Positions 18,055-39,874 of a DNA stretch of 44,628 bases are shown here, one piece after another. The translations under genes were made by a program, and so were the position numbers. Position 1 is the first letter of the stretch. Every line of letters begins with the position of its first letter. The stretch lies in assembly GCA_019056785.1 (NCBI GenBank), contig DXJV01000069.1, forward strand, positions 1 through 44,628, given 5' to 3'. This DNA is from Candidatus Heimdallarchaeota archaeon. GTDB taxonomy: Archaea > Asgardarchaeota > Heimdallarchaeia > JABLTI01. The notes under the pieces are model-generated. The model saw nothing but the letters and a program-made list of their open reading frames with translations, was not told where the DNA came from and did not search any database.

Positions 18055-19590
18055 TTGGAGATGAAAAAACAATTGGGAAAGAAATTCGTACCTGGAGGAG
18101 TAAGCCCTGCATTAGTTACTCCTTTTACAAAACAAGATGAATTTGATGAAGAAGCTTATCGCCGGTTAATACGGTTCGTCATTGACGACCTGGGCGTAAC
18201 TGGTATCGTTCCTGCGGGTTCCACAGGAGAATTTTCCTCACTGTTCTTTGAAGAGCAGAAACGCGTCATAGAGGTTGCTGTCGATGAAGCAAATGGCAAA
18301 GTTGATGTAATGGCCGGAACAGGAACAAGTGGGACGAAACGCACACTTGAAATGACCAAGCATGCTCTGGATGTTGGGGCAGATGCAGCGTTAATTATTA
18401 CACCGTATTATATGAAACCAACACAAAGAGGCCTTTTCCTTCATTACTCAAAAATCGCCGACAAAGTTGATATGCCAATCATGCTTTATCAATTGCCAGC
18501 ATTAACGGACGTAGTGCTTCCGCGGATGGTCGTTGAAGATCTCGCTGTAGAGCATGAGAACATCGTTGGGATGAAATGCTCGTGGGGAAACATGGCCTAC
18601 CTCATGGAGATCCTCGAACGGGTAAAACCCGTTGCACCAAATTTCAAAATTCTCTGTGGTTGGGATGAAATAGTCTTCCCGGCTCTTGCAGCTGGTGTGG
18701 ATGGTTGTATCCTTGCTTCAGCGAATATAATTGGCGACCACTGGGTGAAGATCAAGAAATTGGTTGATAGCGGGAAGCTATTCGAAGCACGAAAAGCCGA
18801 GATGGAAATACACAAGATAACAAGGATCATTGTAAAAACGGGTGCAGCTGGAACAAAAGAAGCACTTAATATGATGGGCATTAAAGTTCGGAAACCACGC
18901 TTGCCGCTCGAAATTGGTGGAAGTATTAGCCATGAACTTCGCTCAGAACTACGTTTAGAGTTAGAACGCATCGGAAAGGTCAAAATAGAACCAATTGTCG
19001 CCTTACCAGAAGAACCAGCAAAAATCGAAGAACGCTTTGGGCAAGTGGATGTTACTGCAGAAACAATTCTTCAAAACAAATTGCTTGTTGGCGAAGGATT
19101 TTTTGGCGGGGACAGACCTGAAATGGCTCACATTGACTTGTTAATCGGACCGAAAGATGGCCCCGTTGGGGAAGCTTTTGCCAAAGCATTAGCAATGGTG
19201 AAGGATGACCCCTCGAAAATAGAAGGCCACGAACCTCTCCTCGCTCTTCTCGAGACAAACGAAGCTGTAAAACCAGAAACCATTTTGATACCAAAAGTTT
19301 TCATTCGAAACCTGCGACAAGCATCGATGGTCTTCGGACCCGTTCAAGCCGGCGTTGCTAAAGCCGTCATACAATGTGTGAAAGACGGCTTCCTACCGGA
19401 AAAGTATGTTAATGACTTGGTCATAATTGCTTCGGTATTTGTTCATCCACATGCAGTCTCAAGAAATCGGGTCTATGTCAATAACCGGAAAGCTACTGTG
19501 ATGGCAATCCGCAAAGCAGTCGAAAACAAACCGGATCTTGACTTTCTATTCGAATCTCCTGCGCGCCATCCATTAAAGAATGAACCCTAA
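18055..19590 (+). CDS. DapA/NAL-family aldolase fused to a C-terminal formaldehyde-activating enzyme (Fae) domain
   Basis: N-terminal: ALVTPF, GSTGE, ITPYY, MLYQLP, Schiff-base Lys in VGMKCS. C-terminal: GEG...AHIDLLIGPKDGPVGEAFA, GHEPLLA, KPETILIPKV, FGPVQAGVAKAV, VFVHP, N..AT..AI.KA. Exact start (18055/18061/18073) uncertain. Confidence 0.88.
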   Translation: MEMKKQLGKKFVPGGVSPALVTPFTKQDEFDEEAYRRLIRFVIDDLGVTGIVPAGSTGEFSSLFFEEQKRVIEVAVDEANGKVDVMAGTGTSGTKRTLEMTKHALDVGADAALIITPYYMKPTQRGLFLHYSKIADKVDMPIMLYQLPALTDVVLPRMVVEDLAVEHENIVGMKCSWGNMAYLMEILERVKPVAPNFKILCGWDEIVFPALAAGVDGCILASANIIGDHWVKIKKLVDSGKLFEARKAEMEIHKITRIIVKTGAAGTKEALNMMGIKVRKPRLPLEIGGSISHELRSELRLELERIGKVKIEPIVALPEEPAKIEERFGQVDVTAETILQNKLLVGEGFFGGDRPEMAHIDLLIGPKDGPVGEAFAKALAMVKDDPSKIEGHEPLLALLETNEAVKPETILIPKVFIRNLRQASMVFGPVQAGVAKAVIQCVKDGFLPEKYVNDLVIIASVFVHPHAVSRNRVYVNNRKATVMAIRKAVENKPDLDFLFESPARHPLKNEP

Positions 19591-19620
19591 AGGTTGTTCA
19601 TTCTCTAATTTTTCTTTTTT
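19577..19620 (+). terminator. Hairpin over the stop codon followed by T-rich tracts
   Basis: AGAATGAAC (19577-19585) / GTTCATTCT (19596-19604), then a long pyrimidine/T-rich run. Confidence 0.5.
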
Positions 19621-19798
19621 ATTTCTCTTTTTCTTCTCTTTCTTCTTACTCATTTTATGCTCCAAAAAAGAATCCTTTTAAAGAAGAAGTCAATAAATAG
19701 CATTAACACTCATATTGAGAATTTCCACCTATTTCAACAATTGATGGCAGTAAGAATGTTTCCAAAGGACTTGCCATCACATAGGAGATTTATTTAAA

Positions 19799-21034
19799 AT
19801 GTACCTATGGTTAAAGATACTAACAATTGTTTATTTAGTGAGTATTGCAATTAGCTTGCTCTACTATTTCTTCATCAGCTTGAATCATAAAGAAGTGCTG
19901 AATGATGCTTATTTGCTGAAAGTTGATCGAGAACCGTTTGTAAGTATCATTTTACCAACTTTGAATGAGGAGAATAATATCGAGAAGTGTTTGCAATCGC
20001 TTCGGTCACAAAATTATTCGAATTTTGAGATCATCCTATCAGATGGTGGCTCAAAAGACAAAACAGTAAAACTAGCGAAAAAATATGTGGATAAAATAAT
20101 TATAAAAGATGATACGCCTGATGAATGGATTGGTAAGAATTACGGTTGCCATCTCGGCTATGAGCAAGCACAAGGAGAGATTTTGCTTTTTACAGATGCA
20201 GATACAGTTCATGCTCCTGATGCATTGCGGATTTTCGTCAGTAAATTACTCGAGAAAAGAGCCGGCTTAGTAACAGTTTTCCCTTATCAAAACTTAAGGC
20301 GATGGTGGGAAAGTATTGTCCCAATTTACTTCTTTCTATCGCACTTAACATCTGGTGGCTTGAAAAAAGTGAATGACCCCAGAGAAAATGATAGTTTCTT
20401 GGGTATAGGACAATATTTGCTGTTCACAAGAGAAGCTTACGAAGAGATAGGTGGGCATTTGCGCTTAAAGGGCTCCATTATAGAAGATTATGCTTTTGCA
20501 CGGATTGTCAAAAAAGAATTACAAGCGCTATTTTATACCCCCAGCGACAAACTTGTAAGGGCACAAATGTATCCAGAGTCATTCCGACATTGTTGGACGG
20601 GCTTCAAAAAGGTTCTCTATGCTGGAACAAAATTAACACCCCCTCGACGAATAACTATTACATTACTGTTTTGCTTAGCAACGATTTTTTCTCCGGTAAT
20701 GATAACCTTGATCGCTATTTACCAAACGCCTCATTCTTTTTGGTTGCTAACAATGGTAATTGGCTATGTGTTCATTATTTTAGCCTTTGCTTTTTATTGG
20801 AATAATAAAGGACGGCATTTTTGGGTGACGTATTTCTTTTTCCCGTTCCTGATGCTCTTTTTCATATTCACATTAATTGCTTCCACATTAGAAATTTTGA
20901 TTAGTAAAACAACCACTTGGAAAGGGCGAAAATACAAGCCTGATTTGCGTGCGGGTTTGAATGATTTTGAAAATAAAAAAGAGGAGGACTTTCCGGCAAG
21001 TGCTCCGAAGGTGAAATTAAAGAGCAATCAATAA
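19799..21034 (+). CDS. Membrane GT2 glycosyltransferase (CrtQ/HpnB-like)
   Basis: SIILPTLNEE, DGGSKDKT, WIGKNYGC, FTDADT, GQYLL..AYEEIGGH, IIEDYAFAR, terminal WKGRKY. N- and C-terminal TMs. AGGAG upstream. Confidence 0.9.
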   Translation: MYLWLKILTIVYLVSIAISLLYYFFISLNHKEVLNDAYLLKVDREPFVSIILPTLNEENNIEKCLQSLRSQNYSNFEIILSDGGSKDKTVKLAKKYVDKIIIKDDTPDEWIGKNYGCHLGYEQAQGEILLFTDADTVHAPDALRIFVSKLLEKRAGLVTVFPYQNLRRWWESIVPIYFFLSHLTSGGLKKVNDPRENDSFLGIGQYLLFTREAYEEIGGHLRLKGSIIEDYAFARIVKKELQALFYTPSDKLVRAQMYPESFRHCWTGFKKVLYAGTKLTPPRRITITLLFCLATIFSPVMITLIAIYQTPHSFWLLTMVIGYVFIILAFAFYWNNKGRHFWVTYFFFPFLMLFFIFTLIASTLEILISKTTTWKGRKYKPDLRAGLNDFENKKEEDFPASAPKVKLKSNQ

Positions 21035-21300: not shown

Positions 21301-22529
21301 TTGTTCCCCCTATGGTTTGCCATATTGACTTGTATTTATCTATTGTTAGTAATTATAATAACTGTTTATTATATTATTATCAGCACGAAAAGAACAGAAC
21401 TCTTTACTGATGATTTTCTTTTACGAAAAAAGCATGAACCTTTTGTTAGTATTATTGTCCCGACATTTAATGAAGAAAAGAACATCGAAAAGTGCTTAAG
21501 TTCTCTAAAAACCTGAATTACTCTCGTTTTGAAATAATTGTTTCAGATGGTGGCTCGACAGATGATACGCCCTTCTTAGCAGAACAATACACTGATAAAG
21601 TATTGGTTGAATCTTCAGTTCCTGAAGGATGGATTGGGAAAAATTATGGTTGCCATCTGGCTGCAGAAATAGCACAAGGAGAGCTACTACTTTTTACCGA
21701 TGTGGACACACGACATACCCCAAATTCGCTGCAGATTGCAGTTAGCAATTTATTGGAAAAAAAGGTTGATCTCTTAACGATTTTTCCGTATCAGAAATTA
21801 TCTCGTTGGTAGGAAAGCATTATCCCGCTCTATTATTTTCTCTCATTGTTTGTTTCAGGCGGGATAAAAAAAGTGAATGATGCAAAAAATGACGACAATT
21901 TTGTGGCAATAGGTCAATATTTGCTTTTCACGAAAAAAGGGTACAAGCAAATTGGCGGCTATGAAAGAATAAAAGGCTCAATAATTGATGATTATGCTTT
22001 CGCTCGGTTAGTAAAAAAAGAACTTCGTTCTCTCTATTATCTCGATTGTAGTAAATTAGTGTACACAGAAATGTACCCAGATTCGCTCTCACATTGTTGG
22101 TCTGGTTTGAAGAAATTTCTCTATGCAGGTGTAAAAATAACGCCGGCACGACGAATCGCCGTCACTATTGTGATGATTCTCTGGACGCTCTTAGCACCAT
22201 TGATGATTATATTAACAAGTCTATATAGTGATTCTTGGGGGCTTTTAGGAACAATTGTTTTCAGCTATGCCCTATTGTTGCTCGAGTTTAACCTTTACTG
22301 GCAAAACAAAGGCTCTCATCGATGGCTCATTTACCTCTTCTTCCCAGTTCAAATGATGATGTTCATTGTTTTAATGCTAACATCTTTAGTGGAAAGCACT
22401 GTCATAAAAACAACTACGTGGAAAGGACGAAAATATTCTCCTGACCTTTCTGCCGGGCTAGATGATTTTGAATCTCCCAACCCCTCCAATGAATTGTTCT
22501 CAGCACAAAGTCAATACAATCAACGGTAA
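21301..22529 (+). pseudogene. Tandem paralogue of the GT2 glycosyltransferase, disrupted by a frameshift and a nonsense codon
   Basis: Three ORF pieces align colinearly with 19799-21034. One base is missing in the A-run at 21507-21511. TAG at 21810-21812 sits where the paralogue has TGG (RWWES vs RW*ES). Confidence 0.85.
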
Positions 22530-26312: not shown

Positions 26313-27452
26313 TTAGTCCTCGATGTAAAGAATTTCGTGAGCTTCTTTTAACCGTTTAATTATCGGGATTCCTTGCGGGCACTTTTCTTCGCATTCACCA
26401 CATTCAATGCAAGCAGTTGCGTTTTTCCATTGAGAATTAGGTTCTTTTCCTATCATAGAGTAATATTGTTTAGCCAAATCCCAGCCGTAGACTTGCCAAT
26501 GTATTAGTTGTTTTAAAATCTTGGTAATATTTACACCATGTTCGCATGGCATACAATAACCACATTGTGTACAAATCAGGTCTGACAAGCGCTTGTATGT
26601 TTCGCTGATTTTTTGAACTCGTTCTTTCTCCTTAGCTGTCAAAGTGATTGTTGGACTATTGGCTAAAGCAAGGTTTTCCCTTACCATGGCCTTATTTCCC
26701 ATCCCTGAAAGGGCAACAGAGATGTTTGGGTTTGACCAGACATGTTTAAATGCCAGGTCGACAAATGTCTTCTTCCCGGGCGTGAGGTAGTTCACTAATT
26801 CTTTTGGTGGCTCTAAGGCTAACCTTCCACCGGCAACAGGCCCCATCACGCACACACCCAACCCTTTCTTTGCTGCGTATTCTATTACTTCAGCATTTGT
26901 ATTATCAATAATATTGTATTGTAGTAAGATAACCTCGAAGATTCCGACATCTATGAGTTCCATTATATTTTCAACTGAATCATGTGACGAAAGCCCAATA
27001 TGCCTAATTTTTCCTTCCCGTTTTGCTTCTTTGGCTTTTTCTAGTAAATCAAATTTCAACACGATTTCTTCATATTGCTGTTTTTTCAAGCTGTGGAAAA
27101 GATAGACATCAATATGGTCTGTTTGGAGGCGTTTTAATTCTTCCTCGAGGAAATTAAGATAATCTTCTTCACTTTTCACTTTCCAGATGGGATTTTTGGT
27201 CATTAAAGTGACTTTTTCACGGTAGCCATCTTGAAGTGCTTTCCCTACCAAAACTTCACCCTGCTCGCGATGGTAAACATAGGCGGTATCAATATAATTG
27301 ACCCCTCCATCAATTGCTTGCCGGATGATCTTTATGGCCTCTGCTTCATTAATAGCTGCAGGGTTTTCAGGGTCAGTTGTAGGGAGTCGCATTGCCCCAA
27401 AACCAAGAACCGAAGCTTTTATACTTGTTTTTCCGAGTAACCGGTAATGCAT
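26313..27452 (-). CDS. Aldo/keto reductase with C-terminal 4Fe-4S dicluster domain
   Basis: LGFGAMRLP, NYIDTAYVY, CTQCGYCMPC, CIECGECEEKCP. Confidence 0.93.
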   Translation of the reverse strand: MHYRLLGKTSIKASVLGFGAMRLPTTDPENPAAINEAEAIKIIRQAIDGGVNYIDTAYVYHREQGEVLVGKALQDGYREKVTLMTKNPIWKVKSEEDYLNFLEEELKRLQTDHIDVYLFHSLKKQQYEEIVLKFDLLEKAKEAKREGKIRHIGLSSHDSVENIMELIDVGIFEVILLQYNIIDNTNAEVIEYAAKKGLGVCVMGPVAGGRLALEPPKELVNYLTPGKKTFVDLAFKHVWSNPNISVALSGMGNKAMVRENLALANSPTITLTAKEKERVQKISETYKRLSDLICTQCGYCMPCEHGVNITKILKQLIHWQVYGWDLAKQYYSMIGKEPNSQWKNATACIECGECEEKCPQGIPIIKRLKEAHEILYIED

Positions 27453-36576: not shown

Positions 36577-38373
36577 ATGACTTGGACAATAGCAGATAGT
36601 AAGCTTGTTTATGGTGTTAATCAAAAGGACCTTTCCCACCTAGATATTTCTTCTAATGGAAAACTCGAATTAGTTATTGATGGAAAGAAAATCACTTTTG
36701 AGGAAATTGTTCGTCATTTTTGTACGACAACGAAGTATCAGGATTGTTCTTTTGCAATCCGTCTTCCACAATTAATTGTGAGTCAGATCAAGAAATTATT
36801 TACTTCTTTTAGAGTTGCCCGTGAAAAATATTCTTATAAAGGCAGCTACCATCCCATCTACCCAATTAAAGTGAACCATTCCAAATTCATAATCGATACG
36901 ATTCGAAAAGCTCACCCCAATTATGCCTTTGAATCGGGCACAAAATCAGAATTTATTCTGTTAAAAGAAGTCTTGAAAGATGAGAAGCATCGTTTAATTA
37001 TGTGTAATGGCAATAAAGACCATGAGTTCCTTGAAGAGATGAAAATTGCAATACGGGAAGGGTATACAATTTGCCTTTCAATAGAATCGGTGCAGGAATT
37101 AAAAGACACGTTAACAATTTTACCTCGCAAGGGTTTTCAACTTGCATTTCGCATTAAACCTTATGTATCCTTACATGGCCATTGGGGGACCTCTAGTAGT
37201 CGACATTCGAAGTTTGGACTTGCTATTGGCGAACTTGTTGAAGTGATGAATCTGCTTAAAGAGAGAAAGGCAACTTCACTTTTGACAACCCTTCATGCCC
37301 ACCCCGGTTCACAAATCACGAGTCTCCATGACATCGAAAATTACGCCCATTTCATGGCAACTGTTTTTCGTCTATTGCATGAGAATGGTCTTACAAACTT
37401 GCGAGCTATTAATTTCGGGGGTGGCTTGCCTATTGATTATGATAATCGTCTTGATAGCCTTTTTATGAAAAAATATGCTGATATTTTGGTAAAGGTTCTT
37501 GCCCAAGAATTACCTGCATTGCAACCTGAACTTTTAACTGAATCAGGGCGAGCTATTACAGCACTTTCTACAATTGTGGTTGTAAAAACAATAGACAGGT
37601 ATGCTGTCTTTCCTGAAAGTGCCATTGACGAACAACTTAAGAACCATTTTTGGTCAAAAGCGAAAACATTACTTCATGCGAAAAGTTCGAAAGAAGTTCT
37701 TGCTAACTGGCAGCAATGGGAAGACAGCCAATTGGTTTTGGACTCACTCCAACATTTGCATGATTTTGAGCATGTCACTCTTCTGTTAAAACGAAAGCTA
37801 CGCGAAGAATTCTTTCAACATAATGATTATCTCGAGTATCTTAATACTCCCGCAGCTAAGAGTTTGTTGAAACCTGAATATACTGTCCAAGGGAATTTTT
37901 CTATTTTTAATTCAATCTGTGATCTGGTTCTTGTAAGTCAGTATTTCCCGGTGATCCCGCTAAACAATTTACACCTTCAGCCGGAAACTCTTGTGAGACT
38001 TTTTGATATAACCTGCGATTCAGATGGTGTGGTAGATGTTTACAATGCCCCTGTGTCTGAGAAAAAGCTGGCAACAAAGGATCATTTTCAATTAACTTTC
38101 CCTAAAGAGTTAACCCTTGGAGGTATACCTGTCGGAAAAAAAGATGAGTTAATCGATAGCTATTTTGTTATTCCTCTTGCCGGAGCTTATCAAGATATTA
38201 TTGAATTTGATCATAACCTTCTTGGCGATTTACCCGATGTGCTTGTCACAGCCAGAACTGATTGGCAAATAACATTACTAACTGGTGCAGAATCAATTGG
38301 CGATATTTTGGAGGATCTGGGTTATCATTTTCCAAATAGTAACGATCCCTATTTTGATAATGGCGGGAAATAA
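36577..38373 (+). CDS. speA: Biosynthetic arginine decarboxylase-like (PLP fold type III)
   Basis: YPIKVN (PLP Lys), ESGTKSE, CNGNKD, SKFGL, HAHPGSQI, GGGLPIDYD, TESGRAITA, NFSIF.S..D, DITCDSDG, GAYQDI...HNLLG. Confidence 0.85.
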   Translation: MTWTIADSKLVYGVNQKDLSHLDISSNGKLELVIDGKKITFEEIVRHFCTTTKYQDCSFAIRLPQLIVSQIKKLFTSFRVAREKYSYKGSYHPIYPIKVNHSKFIIDTIRKAHPNYAFESGTKSEFILLKEVLKDEKHRLIMCNGNKDHEFLEEMKIAIREGYTICLSIESVQELKDTLTILPRKGFQLAFRIKPYVSLHGHWGTSSSRHSKFGLAIGELVEVMNLLKERKATSLLTTLHAHPGSQITSLHDIENYAHFMATVFRLLHENGLTNLRAINFGGGLPIDYDNRLDSLFMKKYADILVKVLAQELPALQPELLTESGRAITALSTIVVVKTIDRYAVFPESAIDEQLKNHFWSKAKTLLHAKSSKEVLANWQQWEDSQLVLDSLQHLHDFEHVTLLLKRKLREEFFQHNDYLEYLNTPAAKSLLKPEYTVQGNFSIFNSICDLVLVSQYFPVIPLNNLHLQPETLVRLFDITCDSDGVVDVYNAPVSEKKLATKDHFQLTFPKELTLGGIPVGKKDELIDSYFVIPLAGAYQDIIEFDHNLLGDLPDVLVTARTDWQITLLTGAESIGDILEDLGYHFPNSNDPYFDNGGK

Positions 38374-38491: not shown

Positions 38492-39874
38492 TTGGCTCAT
38501 GATCAACCTTTATTTCAAAAAGTTGGAAACAAAATTTATTTCGATGGGCAAGATTTGACATTGCTCGTTTCCGAGAAAGTAAAAACACCTGTCTATCTTT
38601 TTAGCGAAAGGGAACTCCACCGTAATATAGATCGACTGCAAAATGCGTTTAGAAAAAATTATCCTAATGTTTCGATAGCCTATTCAATGAAGAATAACAG
38701 CCTTCCGGAAATTGTTAGTATCATTGCCCAACGACTCGAGTCATTTGAAATAAATTCTTTGAAGGAACTACAAATTCTCGAGATGCTTGCGAAAAAAAAC
38801 GGTTCAAAATTCCACCCTATCACAACAACACTTTACAAGCCACCAGAATTTATTGCAAAAATGATTTCCAGCGAATTTTTCAGTGAACCTCTTTTTGCTA
38901 TTGATTCTTTTCAAGATTTCCGAATAGTAAAGAAGGTTGCAGAGCAATTTAAAAAGCGGGTTAACGTTCTTGTTCGTGTAAATCCCGGGCTCGAGACTTC
39001 TTCCCGTGATGCAGTGTTTGCTTCTGCTGGGCTTAATTCGAAATGTGGCTTGCCAATTGGCACCATTGCTTCTTTAATGGAAATGAATAAAACCTCACTT
39101 ACAAACACAATTTTAACTGAACCTCCTGTTGAACAAACAAAAGAAACTGCTGAATATATAATCCAAGAAATTAGCAAAAGTAACTGGCTAAACTTGCAGG
39201 GACTTCATTTTCATACCGGAAGTCAAATAACTGATTTAGATTATTTTAACAATGTTTACGAAATTGCTGCACTCTTTTACAAATGGGTGAAAAACGAATT
39301 CGCAACGGAACTTACGATTCTAGACCTCGGAGGTGGCTATCCTGTACAATACTCACCAGCAGATAAGGTTCCTTCTTTGGATGCCATTGCAAATTGTCTC
39401 AGCACGCATTTGAAGAAGCATGCTATCGCCCCAGAAGTCATCCTCGAAAGTGGGCGATATATTACTGCAAGTGCCGGGATATTATTAACGACAGTCAAAT
39501 TAATAAAACAACTTCTAACTGGGCAGAGACTTGCTGTGTTGGACTTCTCTGTTTACAGCGACTTGTTGGATACGCTCACTGCAAAGTGGTTTTATCAACC
39601 GATTCTCGTGAATAACCTTCCCCAAGAAACGCAAACTAATCCTGGGATCTGTTATGAGCTTGTGGGTTGCACAAACGATGTTTTGGATCGTTTGCCCTCT
39701 TATCTTGATACATCAAGTAGTAGTTTTTCTGAAAATATCAATGGGCATTGTTTTCCTCGAGAGCTAAAGGAAGGAGATTTAATCGCCATTAAAAATGCAG
39801 GTGCTTATACTACTTGTTTCAATTCTGAGTATAGTGGTAAACCTATCTCAGCGAAATTTATTCTTAAAAAATGA
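38492..39874 (+). CDS. Fold-type III PLP decarboxylase (LysA/ODC-like), substrate unknown
   Basis: TPVYLF, YSMKNN (PLP Lys), VRVNPG, HFHTGSQI, DLGGGYP, LESGRYI, NAGAYT. GGAG lies 8 nt before the TTG start. Confidence 0.85.
   Translation: MAHDQPLFQKVGNKIYFDGQDLTLLVSEKVKTPVYLFSERELHRNIDRLQNAFRKNYPNVSIAYSMKNNSLPEIVSIIAQRLESFEINSLKELQILEMLAKKNGSKFHPITTTLYKPPEFIAKMISSEFFSEPLFAIDSFQDFRIVKKVAEQFKKRVNVLVRVNPGLETSSRDAVFASAGLNSKCGLPIGTIASLMEMNKTSLTNTILTEPPVEQTKETAEYIIQEISKSNWLNLQGLHFHTGSQITDLDYFNNVYEIAALFYKWVKNEFATELTILDLGGGYPVQYSPADKVPSLDAIANCLSTHLKKHAIAPEVILESGRYITASAGILLTTVKLIKQLLTGQRLAVLDFSVYSDLLDTLTAKWFYQPILVNNLPQETQTNPGICYELVGCTNDVLDRLPSYLDTSSSSFSENINGHCFPRELKEGDLIAIKNAGAYTTCFNSEYSGKPISAKFILKK

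Follow-up and report, generated by a model that had tools for sequence, protein, structure and literature searches.

In Fae-Hps proteins (NF009833; 5,6,7,8-tetrahydromethanopterin hydro-lyase/3-hexulose-6-phosphate synthase), the formaldehyde-activating enzyme (Fae, EC 4.2.1.147) is joined to a partner that forms or cleaves a carbon–carbon bond with formaldehyde, and free formaldehyde is thereby connected directly to the pool of tetrahydromethanopterin (H4MPT). DapA (TIGR00674), the 4-hydroxy-tetrahydrodipicolinate synthase of lysine synthesis (EC 4.3.3.7), is a class I aldolase of the DHDPS/NAL superfamily. The chemistry of joining formaldehyde to pyruvate is known from the engineered homoserine cycle, in which the two are condensed to 4-hydroxy-2-oxobutanoate (HOB) and HOB is transaminated to homoserine; both steps work (reviewed in PMC8879981). 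Literature searches found nothing on a DHDPS–Fae fusion or on homoserine being made through HOB in nature. A gene encoding such a fusion (P0001) lies on the plus strand at 18055–19590 of contig DXJV01000069.1 (the window: the whole 44,628-nucleotide stretch that was analysed), which belongs to a Heimdall-type Asgard archaeon whose genome assembly comprises 2.87 Mb in 102 contigs and is 82.5% complete. The protein is very probably a formaldehyde-coupled 2-oxo-acid aldolase rather than a DapA. Its genomic surroundings suggest that HOB is probably its product or substrate and lean towards a biosynthetic direction, with the fusion taking the place of homoserine dehydrogenase (hom).

The fusion gene runs uninterrupted in one open frame for 511 codons, counted from a TTG at 18055; an ATG two codons downstream, at 18061, may be the true start. 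Residues 14–300 (18094–18954, plus strand) form a class I (Schiff-base) pyruvate-type aldolase domain of the DHDPS/NAL superfamily, recognised by Pfam DHDPS (E 1.2e-70), by alignment to structure 2yxg, and by the residue census and tree described below. Residues 345–501 (19087–19557, plus strand) form the Fae domain (PF08714, E 2e-50, 171 bits against a cut-off of 27). Between the two Pfam envelopes sits a linker rich in Glu, Pro, and Ile (residues 301–344; 18955–19086, plus strand), which has few invariant columns across the fusion family. Directly upstream on the same strand is the gene for a 426-residue TIM-barrel protein, P0122 (16768–18048), whose stop codon lies 6 nucleotides before the TTG of the fusion. 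The fusion stop codon is followed by a T-rich tract, read directly in the sequence (19591–19660, plus strand), which probably marks the end of a two-gene transcription unit of P0122 and the fusion; the next gene, for a GT2 glycosyltransferase, begins only at 19799.

The closest public proteins have both domains, arranged as in the window protein; they are 87–95% identical to it in metagenome-assembled genomes of Heimdallarchaeota, whereas the figure is about 64% for Hodarchaeota, 58% for Borrarchaeum, and 54% for Bathyarchaeia. The fused architecture is seen in many relatives among Heimdall-, Hod-, Loki-, Thor-, and Borrarchaeia as well as Bathyarchaeia, and therefore represents a real conserved gene, neither a chance open reading frame nor an assembly artefact. 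Public names for these relatives are mostly DapA, with a few 'Fae' or 'hypothetical protein'. Near-identical fusion genes also occur in records labelled Zixibacteria, Acidiferrales, and Krumholzibacteriaceae (P0014; L137, L140); these are most likely archaeal contigs mis-binned into bacterial genomes. Tandem pairs of diverged fusions, about 40% identical to the window protein, were seen in Asgard family f10 and in some Bathyarchaeia (L025:5883-8764, minus strand, with further cases in G007, G053, G223, G259, and G265). The distribution of the fusion was examined in two samples, namely 201 Asgard genomes and 91 Bathyarchaeia genomes around one complete chromosome.

The aldolase domain possesses the catalytic core of its superfamily. 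The motifs GSTGE (residues 55–59), MLYQLP (with Tyr145), GMKCS (with Lys174), and GWDE (202–205) are all present, and the catalytic Lys161 of DapA with its Tyr133/Thr44/Tyr107 relay is found in the fusion as Lys174, Tyr145, Ser56, and Tyr119, Ser56 being followed by Thr57. When 119 fusion proteins were aligned with E. coli DapA, NanA, YagE, and YjhH, these four taken from annotated loci, the residues Lys161, Tyr133, Tyr107, Thr45, Gly186, and Ile203 (E. coli DapA numbering) proved invariant in every fusion, and the position of Ser56 was Thr in 92 of the 119. What separates the domain from DapA is Arg138, which binds the carboxylate of aspartate semialdehyde within the motif YNVPxRT. E. coli DapA and four Asgard DapA genes have this arginine; the window protein has Leu150 instead, and none of the 119 fusions has Arg, the position being Cys (50), Val (31), Leu (24), or Ala (12); NanA, YagE, and YjhH also have Leu here. 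Alignment to the Methanocaldococcus jannaschii DapA structure 2yxg, in which about 40% of residues match, shows the same loss.

The NCBIfam dapA model (TIGR00674) is passed only marginally, with 210.7 bits against a cut-off of 206.15, and the scores with three models of N-acetylneuraminate lyases and KDG-type pyruvate aldolases all fall below theirs: NF003164 (178 bits against 281), TIGR00683 (153 against 382), and Arch_KDGaldase (96 against 390). For HOB aldolases there is no curated family. In a tree that is small and has long branches outside the DapA clade, E. coli DapA and four dapB-linked Asgard DapA proteins formed a clade with 100/100 support, and all 23 fusion aldolase domains fell outside it. 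Among the Asgard genomes, dapB turned up in family f13 (37/40) and one f26 genome only, where a separate dapA of about 300 residues with YNVPxRT lies directly upstream of dapB; it was not found in the fusion-carrying families f1, f10, f16, f17, f19, and f24 of that sample. Within the 82.5% complete source genome, searches for dapB and asd gave no hit, and those for lysA none above the cut-off. The window does contain two adjacent open reading frames resembling pyridoxal-phosphate decarboxylases (36577–38373 and 38492–39874, plus strand), which score 94–102 bits against the lysA family cut-off of 298 and are probably of the arginine or ornithine decarboxylase type, not LysA.

The Fae domain looks functional, as judged from its conservation. 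It scores 169.5 bits against a cut-off of 118 with the NCBIfam model one_C_fae (TIGR03126) and aligns over the full length of the Methylorubrum Fae structure 1Y5Y (residues 5–164), while the Fae-Hps model NF009833 gives 132.5 bits against 274, with the match limited to the Fae part. In an alignment that included the source genome's own Fae-Hps, the residues His359, Asp361, Phe462, and His464 were invariant in all 119 fusions, and position 427—Phe in the window protein—was Phe or Tyr throughout. We take His22, Phe84, and Phe119 of Methylorubrum Fae, which match His359, Phe427, and Phe462 of the fusion, to be active-site or pterin-clamp residues. Both domains of the fusion thus appear intact and under selection. 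The source genome encodes further H4MPT functions, namely Mtd, two copies of Mch, beta-RFAP synthase, and a canonical Fae-Hps (520 bits); Mer was not found there.

The initial annotation, made from the window sequence, had described an uninterrupted frame with an intact aldolase core and a full-length Fae domain, and the frame, the Pfam matches, the motifs, and the 1Y5Y alignment agree. It had also suggested a role other than lysine synthesis, noting the lack of dapB and asd in the window; neither gene was found in the whole 2.87-Mb genome (82.5% complete), and the loss of Arg138 and the position in the tree speak in the same sense. Of the two comparisons it had suggested, the phylogeny against true DapA put the 23 fusion domains of the small tree outside the DapA clade, and the search for H4MPT genes returned all of those named above bar Mer, so that a genome devoid of H4MPT metabolism is not what was found.

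The evidence for the substrate comes from gene content. In the source genome, aspartate kinase, Asd, homoserine dehydrogenase, ThrB, and DapB were not found, yet a ThrC-family gene is present. The last four were likewise not found in three genomes of the same genus, where aspartate kinase was not searched, and the same gaps recur across whole families. The fusion and homoserine dehydrogenase are largely mutually exclusive in two phyla. The 201 Asgard genomes divide, in counts made by hand from match lists, into 14 with both, 81 with the fusion and no homoserine dehydrogenase, 60 with the dehydrogenase and no fusion, and 46 with neither; the corresponding figures for the 91 Bathyarchaeia are 2, 20, 54, and 15. 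Homoserine dehydrogenase is therefore absent from 81 of the 95 fusion-bearing Asgard genomes and from 20 of the 22 fusion-bearing Bathyarchaeia, and present in 54 of the 69 Bathyarchaeia that have no fusion. The pattern holds by family: f1, f10, f16, f17, and f24 carry the fusion in 61 of 71 genomes and the dehydrogenase in 2 of 71, and f2, f3, f4, f7, f8, f11, and f22 have no fusion and the dehydrogenase in most genomes. Homoserine dehydrogenase was again not found in another five Bathyarchaeia genomes with the fusion, of which at least two are chromosome-level records. ThrC-family genes, by comparison, are nearly universal in both samples (180/201 Asgard genomes; above cut-off in 17 of the 22 fusion-bearing Bathyarchaeia). 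An E. coli ThrC query missed the ThrC of the source genome, which was found with an archaeal ThrC query and the family model, and therefore negatives obtained with single-protein queries need caution.

One bathyarchaeial genome (G239) places the fusion directly among threonine genes. Here, an ACT-domain protein, the fusion, a GHMP kinase (ThrB), and ThrC are encoded on one strand with short gaps (L147:5281-9726, plus strand), adjoining hisG and hisA/F. The kinase matches E. coli ThrB (E 2.9e-27), ThrC scores 377 bits, and homoserine dehydrogenase was not found in this genome; the fusion fills the position that hom occupies in hom-thrB-thrC operons. The small ACT protein may regulate the pathway by sensing an amino acid.

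HOB is favoured as substrate because, in two phyla, genomes with the fusion mostly have no homoserine dehydrogenase, and because one genome clusters the fusion with thrB and thrC; the same two observations point to the biosynthetic direction, in which a one-carbon (C1) unit would pass from H4MPT into the homoserine skeleton. In the proposed mechanism, the Fae domain would interconvert methylene-H4MPT with H4MPT and formaldehyde. Lys174 would form a Schiff base with pyruvate, and the resulting enamine would add to the Fae-derived formaldehyde, possibly channelled between the domains, to yield HOB. The net reaction would be an H4MPT-dependent hydroxymethylation of pyruvate, with a logic comparable to that of PanB or Fae-Hps. 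A class I aminotransferase encoded elsewhere would convert HOB to homoserine—the source genome encodes three homologues of an aminotransferase from a related operon, described below—and a kinase step followed by the ThrC-family enzyme would lead to threonine, and possibly to methionine too. The fusion would thereby replace the route through aspartate kinase, aspartate-semialdehyde dehydrogenase, and homoserine dehydrogenase, which was not found in the source genome. The initial annotation had already suggested that pyruvate and formaldehyde are interconverted with HOB by an enzyme linked to H4MPT; that chemistry gains support from the exclusion of homoserine dehydrogenase and from the thrB-thrC cluster, while the direction it proposed, with the C1 unit handed to H4MPT, is probably the reverse of the actual one.

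Whether this can be generalised is evenly balanced: many Asgard and Bathyarchaeia may make homoserine, and from it threonine and perhaps methionine, from pyruvate and the C1 unit of methylene-H4MPT, with the fusion as committed enzyme, two partner families (P0122 and a 315-residue family) as further members of the pathway, and C4 of threonine drawn from the Wood–Ljungdahl or C1 pool.

P0122 is co-transcribed with the fusion and belongs to the same system or pathway; in the proposed scheme, it would act at some step of the route to homoserine and threonine. It has no Pfam or NCBIfam match, yet its sequence identity across Asgard classes and Bathyarchaeia is 66–72%. When 1.8 billion representatives were searched with a profile, this recovered essentially one full-length cluster at 50% identity, two divergent full-length proteins, and fragments, with no detectable distant relatives. 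Judged by coordinates, P0122 directly precedes the fusion in the same orientation in at least 27 further genomes of the sample (f1, f13, and f26), and does so also in Loki- and Thor-labelled contigs (L014 and L015); in Bathyarchaeia, it stands divergently beside the fusion, occurring in 7 of the 22 fusion genomes (the other 15 are without it) and in 0 of the 69 non-fusion genomes. Its contexts are always the aldolase–Fae fusion, an aminotransferase-hom-AOR operon, or a place beside ThrC. The AlphaFold2 model of P0122 (predicted local distance difference test score 80.6) gave generic TIM-barrel matches only. Foldseek against the PDB returned nothing below E 2e-3, and VIA-align gave tied generic barrels at Z 11–12 (CutC, DUF849/Kce, IspG, and glutamate mutase E). 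An Atlas fold search stayed under a TM-score of 0.5 by model length, and an Atlas feature search stayed under 0.9 and returned unrelated families, so that these comparisons placed P0122 in no family.

The operon just mentioned occurs in Heimdall families f2 and f4, which have P0122 and no fusion. The P0122 homologue comes first, followed by a gene resembling aspartate aminotransferases, one for homoserine dehydrogenase (NF004912, 415 bits; cut-off 373), and one for an AOR-family oxidoreductase (L021:6304-11759 and L022:6580-11926, plus strand). These families are almost without Asd (0/21 and 1/10), and the presence of homoserine dehydrogenase with almost no Asd suggests that the tungsten/molybdenum AOR may do the work of aspartate kinase and Asd by interconverting aspartate and its semialdehyde. 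In family f10, the P0122 homologue divergently adjoins a ThrC-PadR gene in at least 16 genomes. Such ThrC-family proteins of about 485–500 residues, with a C-terminal PadR-type DNA-binding domain, are widespread in Asgard archaea (for example, L024:3647-5152, minus strand, and, in the source genome, L066:7995-9449, plus strand), and may be enzyme–regulator fusions.

In the fusion-bearing families f12, f16, f17, f21, and f24, P0122 is replaced by a 315-residue protein without Pfam match, usually encoded directly upstream of the fusion (L034:8813-9760, L037:8929-9876, and L033:5421-6359, all minus strand). By hand count, 92 of the 95 fusion-bearing Asgard genomes have one partner or the other, and in the remaining three either the genome is incomplete or the fusion lies at the end of a contig. 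Structure models show a TIM barrel for each partner, with class II metal aldolases and generic barrels as nearest structures. The top Foldseek matches of the 315-residue model are the class II metal aldolases YdjI, tagatose-bisphosphate aldolase, and class II fructose-bisphosphate aldolase (E about 2e-8, TM-score about 0.5–0.58), which are suggestive of fold, not function. The two partner families share no phmmer match, and hhalign aligned them at a probability of 5.5% and E 0.007 with motif matches in order, which hints at a remote relationship.

Several observations weigh against a biosynthetic HOB route. The case for both substrate and direction is drawn from genomic context, and no aminotransferase gene adjoins the fusion in the window. 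The ThrC-family protein of the source genome passes TIGR00260 narrowly (173 bits against 167) and has a C-terminal extension, so that its substrate is putative. At 82.5% completeness, a gene missing from that genome could also have been lost to a gap in the assembly. The fusion does coexist with homoserine dehydrogenase in 14 Asgard genomes (f12, f19, f21, and part of f13) and in two Bathyarchaeia, and related genomes are not independent, whereby the raw co-occurrence counts are descriptive and overstate their statistical weight. Since Mer was not found, methylene-H4MPT would have to come from reduction of formate or CO2 via Mtd and Mch, or from Fae-Hps. Finally, P0122 does not simply stand in for ThrB: the failure to find ThrB in families f1, f2, f10, and f13 had favoured such a role, but P0122 co-occurs with ThrB in G239 and in five of ten f4 genomes, and the idea was set aside.

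The first alternative, which is unlikely, runs the same reaction catabolically: HOB, arising from homoserine or from the P0122 reaction, would be cleaved to pyruvate and formaldehyde, with Fae trapping the toxic formaldehyde as methylene-H4MPT for oxidation by Mtd and Mch. These organisms are peptide and amino-acid fermenters, and the presence of Mtd and Mch in a genome where Mer was not found fits an oxidative C1 branch. In the Fae-Hps of non-methylotrophic archaea, Fae acts as a formaldehyde sink, which offers an analogy, and the source genome has a Fae-Hps. The aminotransferase–homoserine dehydrogenase–AOR operon with its P0122 homologue could also be read as degrading homoserine to aspartate. 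However, a catabolic fusion would leave ThrC without a source of homoserine in at least 74 Asgard genomes and in most fusion-bearing Bathyarchaeia, and the ACT-fusion-thrB-thrC cluster among biosynthetic his genes would go unexplained; no source of HOB or homoserine to feed such a pathway was identified.

A C1-linked aldolase that uses another donor or acceptor—2-oxobutanoate, 3-methyl-2-oxobutanoate (giving ketopantoate, as an analogue of PanB), or a larger 4-hydroxy-2-oxo acid—and serves another pathway or cofactor is quite improbable. Class I DHDPS/NAL aldolases are often promiscuous, the variation between Cys, Val, Leu, and Ala at the Arg138 position suggests that the binding pocket differs between family members, and P0122, a protein without detectable distant relatives, has no assigned function. 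The conserved neighbours, however, are all related to homoserine and threonine (thrB, thrC, homoserine dehydrogenase, the aspartate-aminotransferase-like gene, and ACT), and the mutual exclusion with homoserine dehydrogenase points the same way. The idea of a PanB substitute (ketopantoate aldolase) was dropped as unnecessary, PanB itself being present in the source genome as two fragments at contig ends.

An aldolase acting on sugar acids or otherwise unrelated to formaldehyde, with Fae reduced to a non-catalytic oligomerisation or scaffold module, is very unlikely: of the E. coli references, the one with the highest pairwise score is YagE (149 bits), an aldolase of 2-keto-3-deoxy sugar acids, and the pentameric Fae has served designed proteins as a scaffold for fusions (the 8ub7 series), but His359, Asp361, Phe462, and His464 are invariant, the Fae domain lies above the NCBIfam equivalog cut-off, and no sugar-acid dehydratase or kinase adjoins the fusion in any locus inspected. 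A genuine DapA with an accessory Fae domain, to which a margin of 4.5 bits over the dapA equivalog cut-off, the names in public records, and the DapA proteins heading the solved-structure matches might point, can be dismissed as extremely improbable given the lost Arg138, the tree, the failure to find dapB, asd, or an above-cut-off lysA in the source genome, and the distribution of dapB, which was not found in most fusion families and, where it exists, has a separate dapA next to it.

With HOB as the preferred substrate and synthesis of homoserine as the preferred direction, the links to homoserine and threonine, the replication in a second phylum, the thrB-thrC cluster, and the second partner family are new. 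If the proposal is right, a route to homoserine known until now only as a laboratory design would exist in nature, in two of the most abundant groups of sediment archaea, including the closest prokaryotic relatives of eukaryotes. It would link C1 metabolism with amino-acid synthesis, one aldol step standing in place of the one ATP and two NAD(P)H of the aspartate route. A natural, dedicated, carrier-coupled formaldehyde–pyruvate aldolase would also be a tool for synthetic methylotrophy, which now relies on promiscuous class II aldolases. The DapA label, for its part, can yield false lysine-pathway calls and masks genomes that have no recognisable homoserine route yet retain ThrC. The function of two very conserved protein families, P0122 and the 315-residue proteins, becomes open to experiment.

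Elsewhere in the window, one gene (26313–27452, minus strand) encodes an aldo/keto reductase that continues into a 4Fe-4S dicluster domain at its C-terminus. The full GT2 glycosyltransferase gene downstream of the fusion (19799–21034, plus strand) is followed by a GT2 fragment of 106 residues (21492–21812, plus strand), which may be a split or decayed second copy.

Set beside the described systems, the fusion comes nearest in its working logic to Fae-Hps, by analogy, while standing outside that family because it has no Hps domain. The Hps partner has the orotidine-monophosphate-decarboxylase fold whereas the partner in the fusion belongs to the class I Schiff-base aldolases of DHDPS/NAL type, the order of the domains is reversed, with Fae C-terminal in the fusion, and Fae-Hps serves ribulose 5-phosphate and the pentoses where the fusion would serve pyruvate and, through it, homoserine and threonine. 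With DapA, the fusion shares the fold, the Schiff-base lysine, and the Tyr/Thr(Ser)/Tyr relay, and differs in the absence of Arg138, the position outside the DapA clade, the lack of a dapB/asd context, and the possession of a Fae domain. It resembles NanA, YagE, and YjhH in GSTGE, GxDE, and a hydrophobic residue instead of Arg at DapA position 138, and has the motif Y-x-x-P-x-L-T/S as in NanA; however, it falls far below the cut-offs of the NanA and KDG aldolase families and has no sugar-acid genes nearby. PanB likewise takes a hydroxymethyl group from a methylene-pterin and places it on C3 of a 2-oxo acid, as proposed here, but does so with one metal-dependent domain that uses methylene-tetrahydrofolate directly, in place of two fused catalytic domains. 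The chemistry proposed for the fusion is the same as that of the engineered homoserine cycle, which pairs the E. coli HOB aldolase RhmA with a HOB aminotransferase (PMC8879981). That synthetic cycle employs promiscuous, metal-dependent class II aldolases and free formaldehyde, whereas the fusion is a natural, conserved class I enzyme, joined to H4MPT through its Fae domain and putatively dedicated to the reaction.

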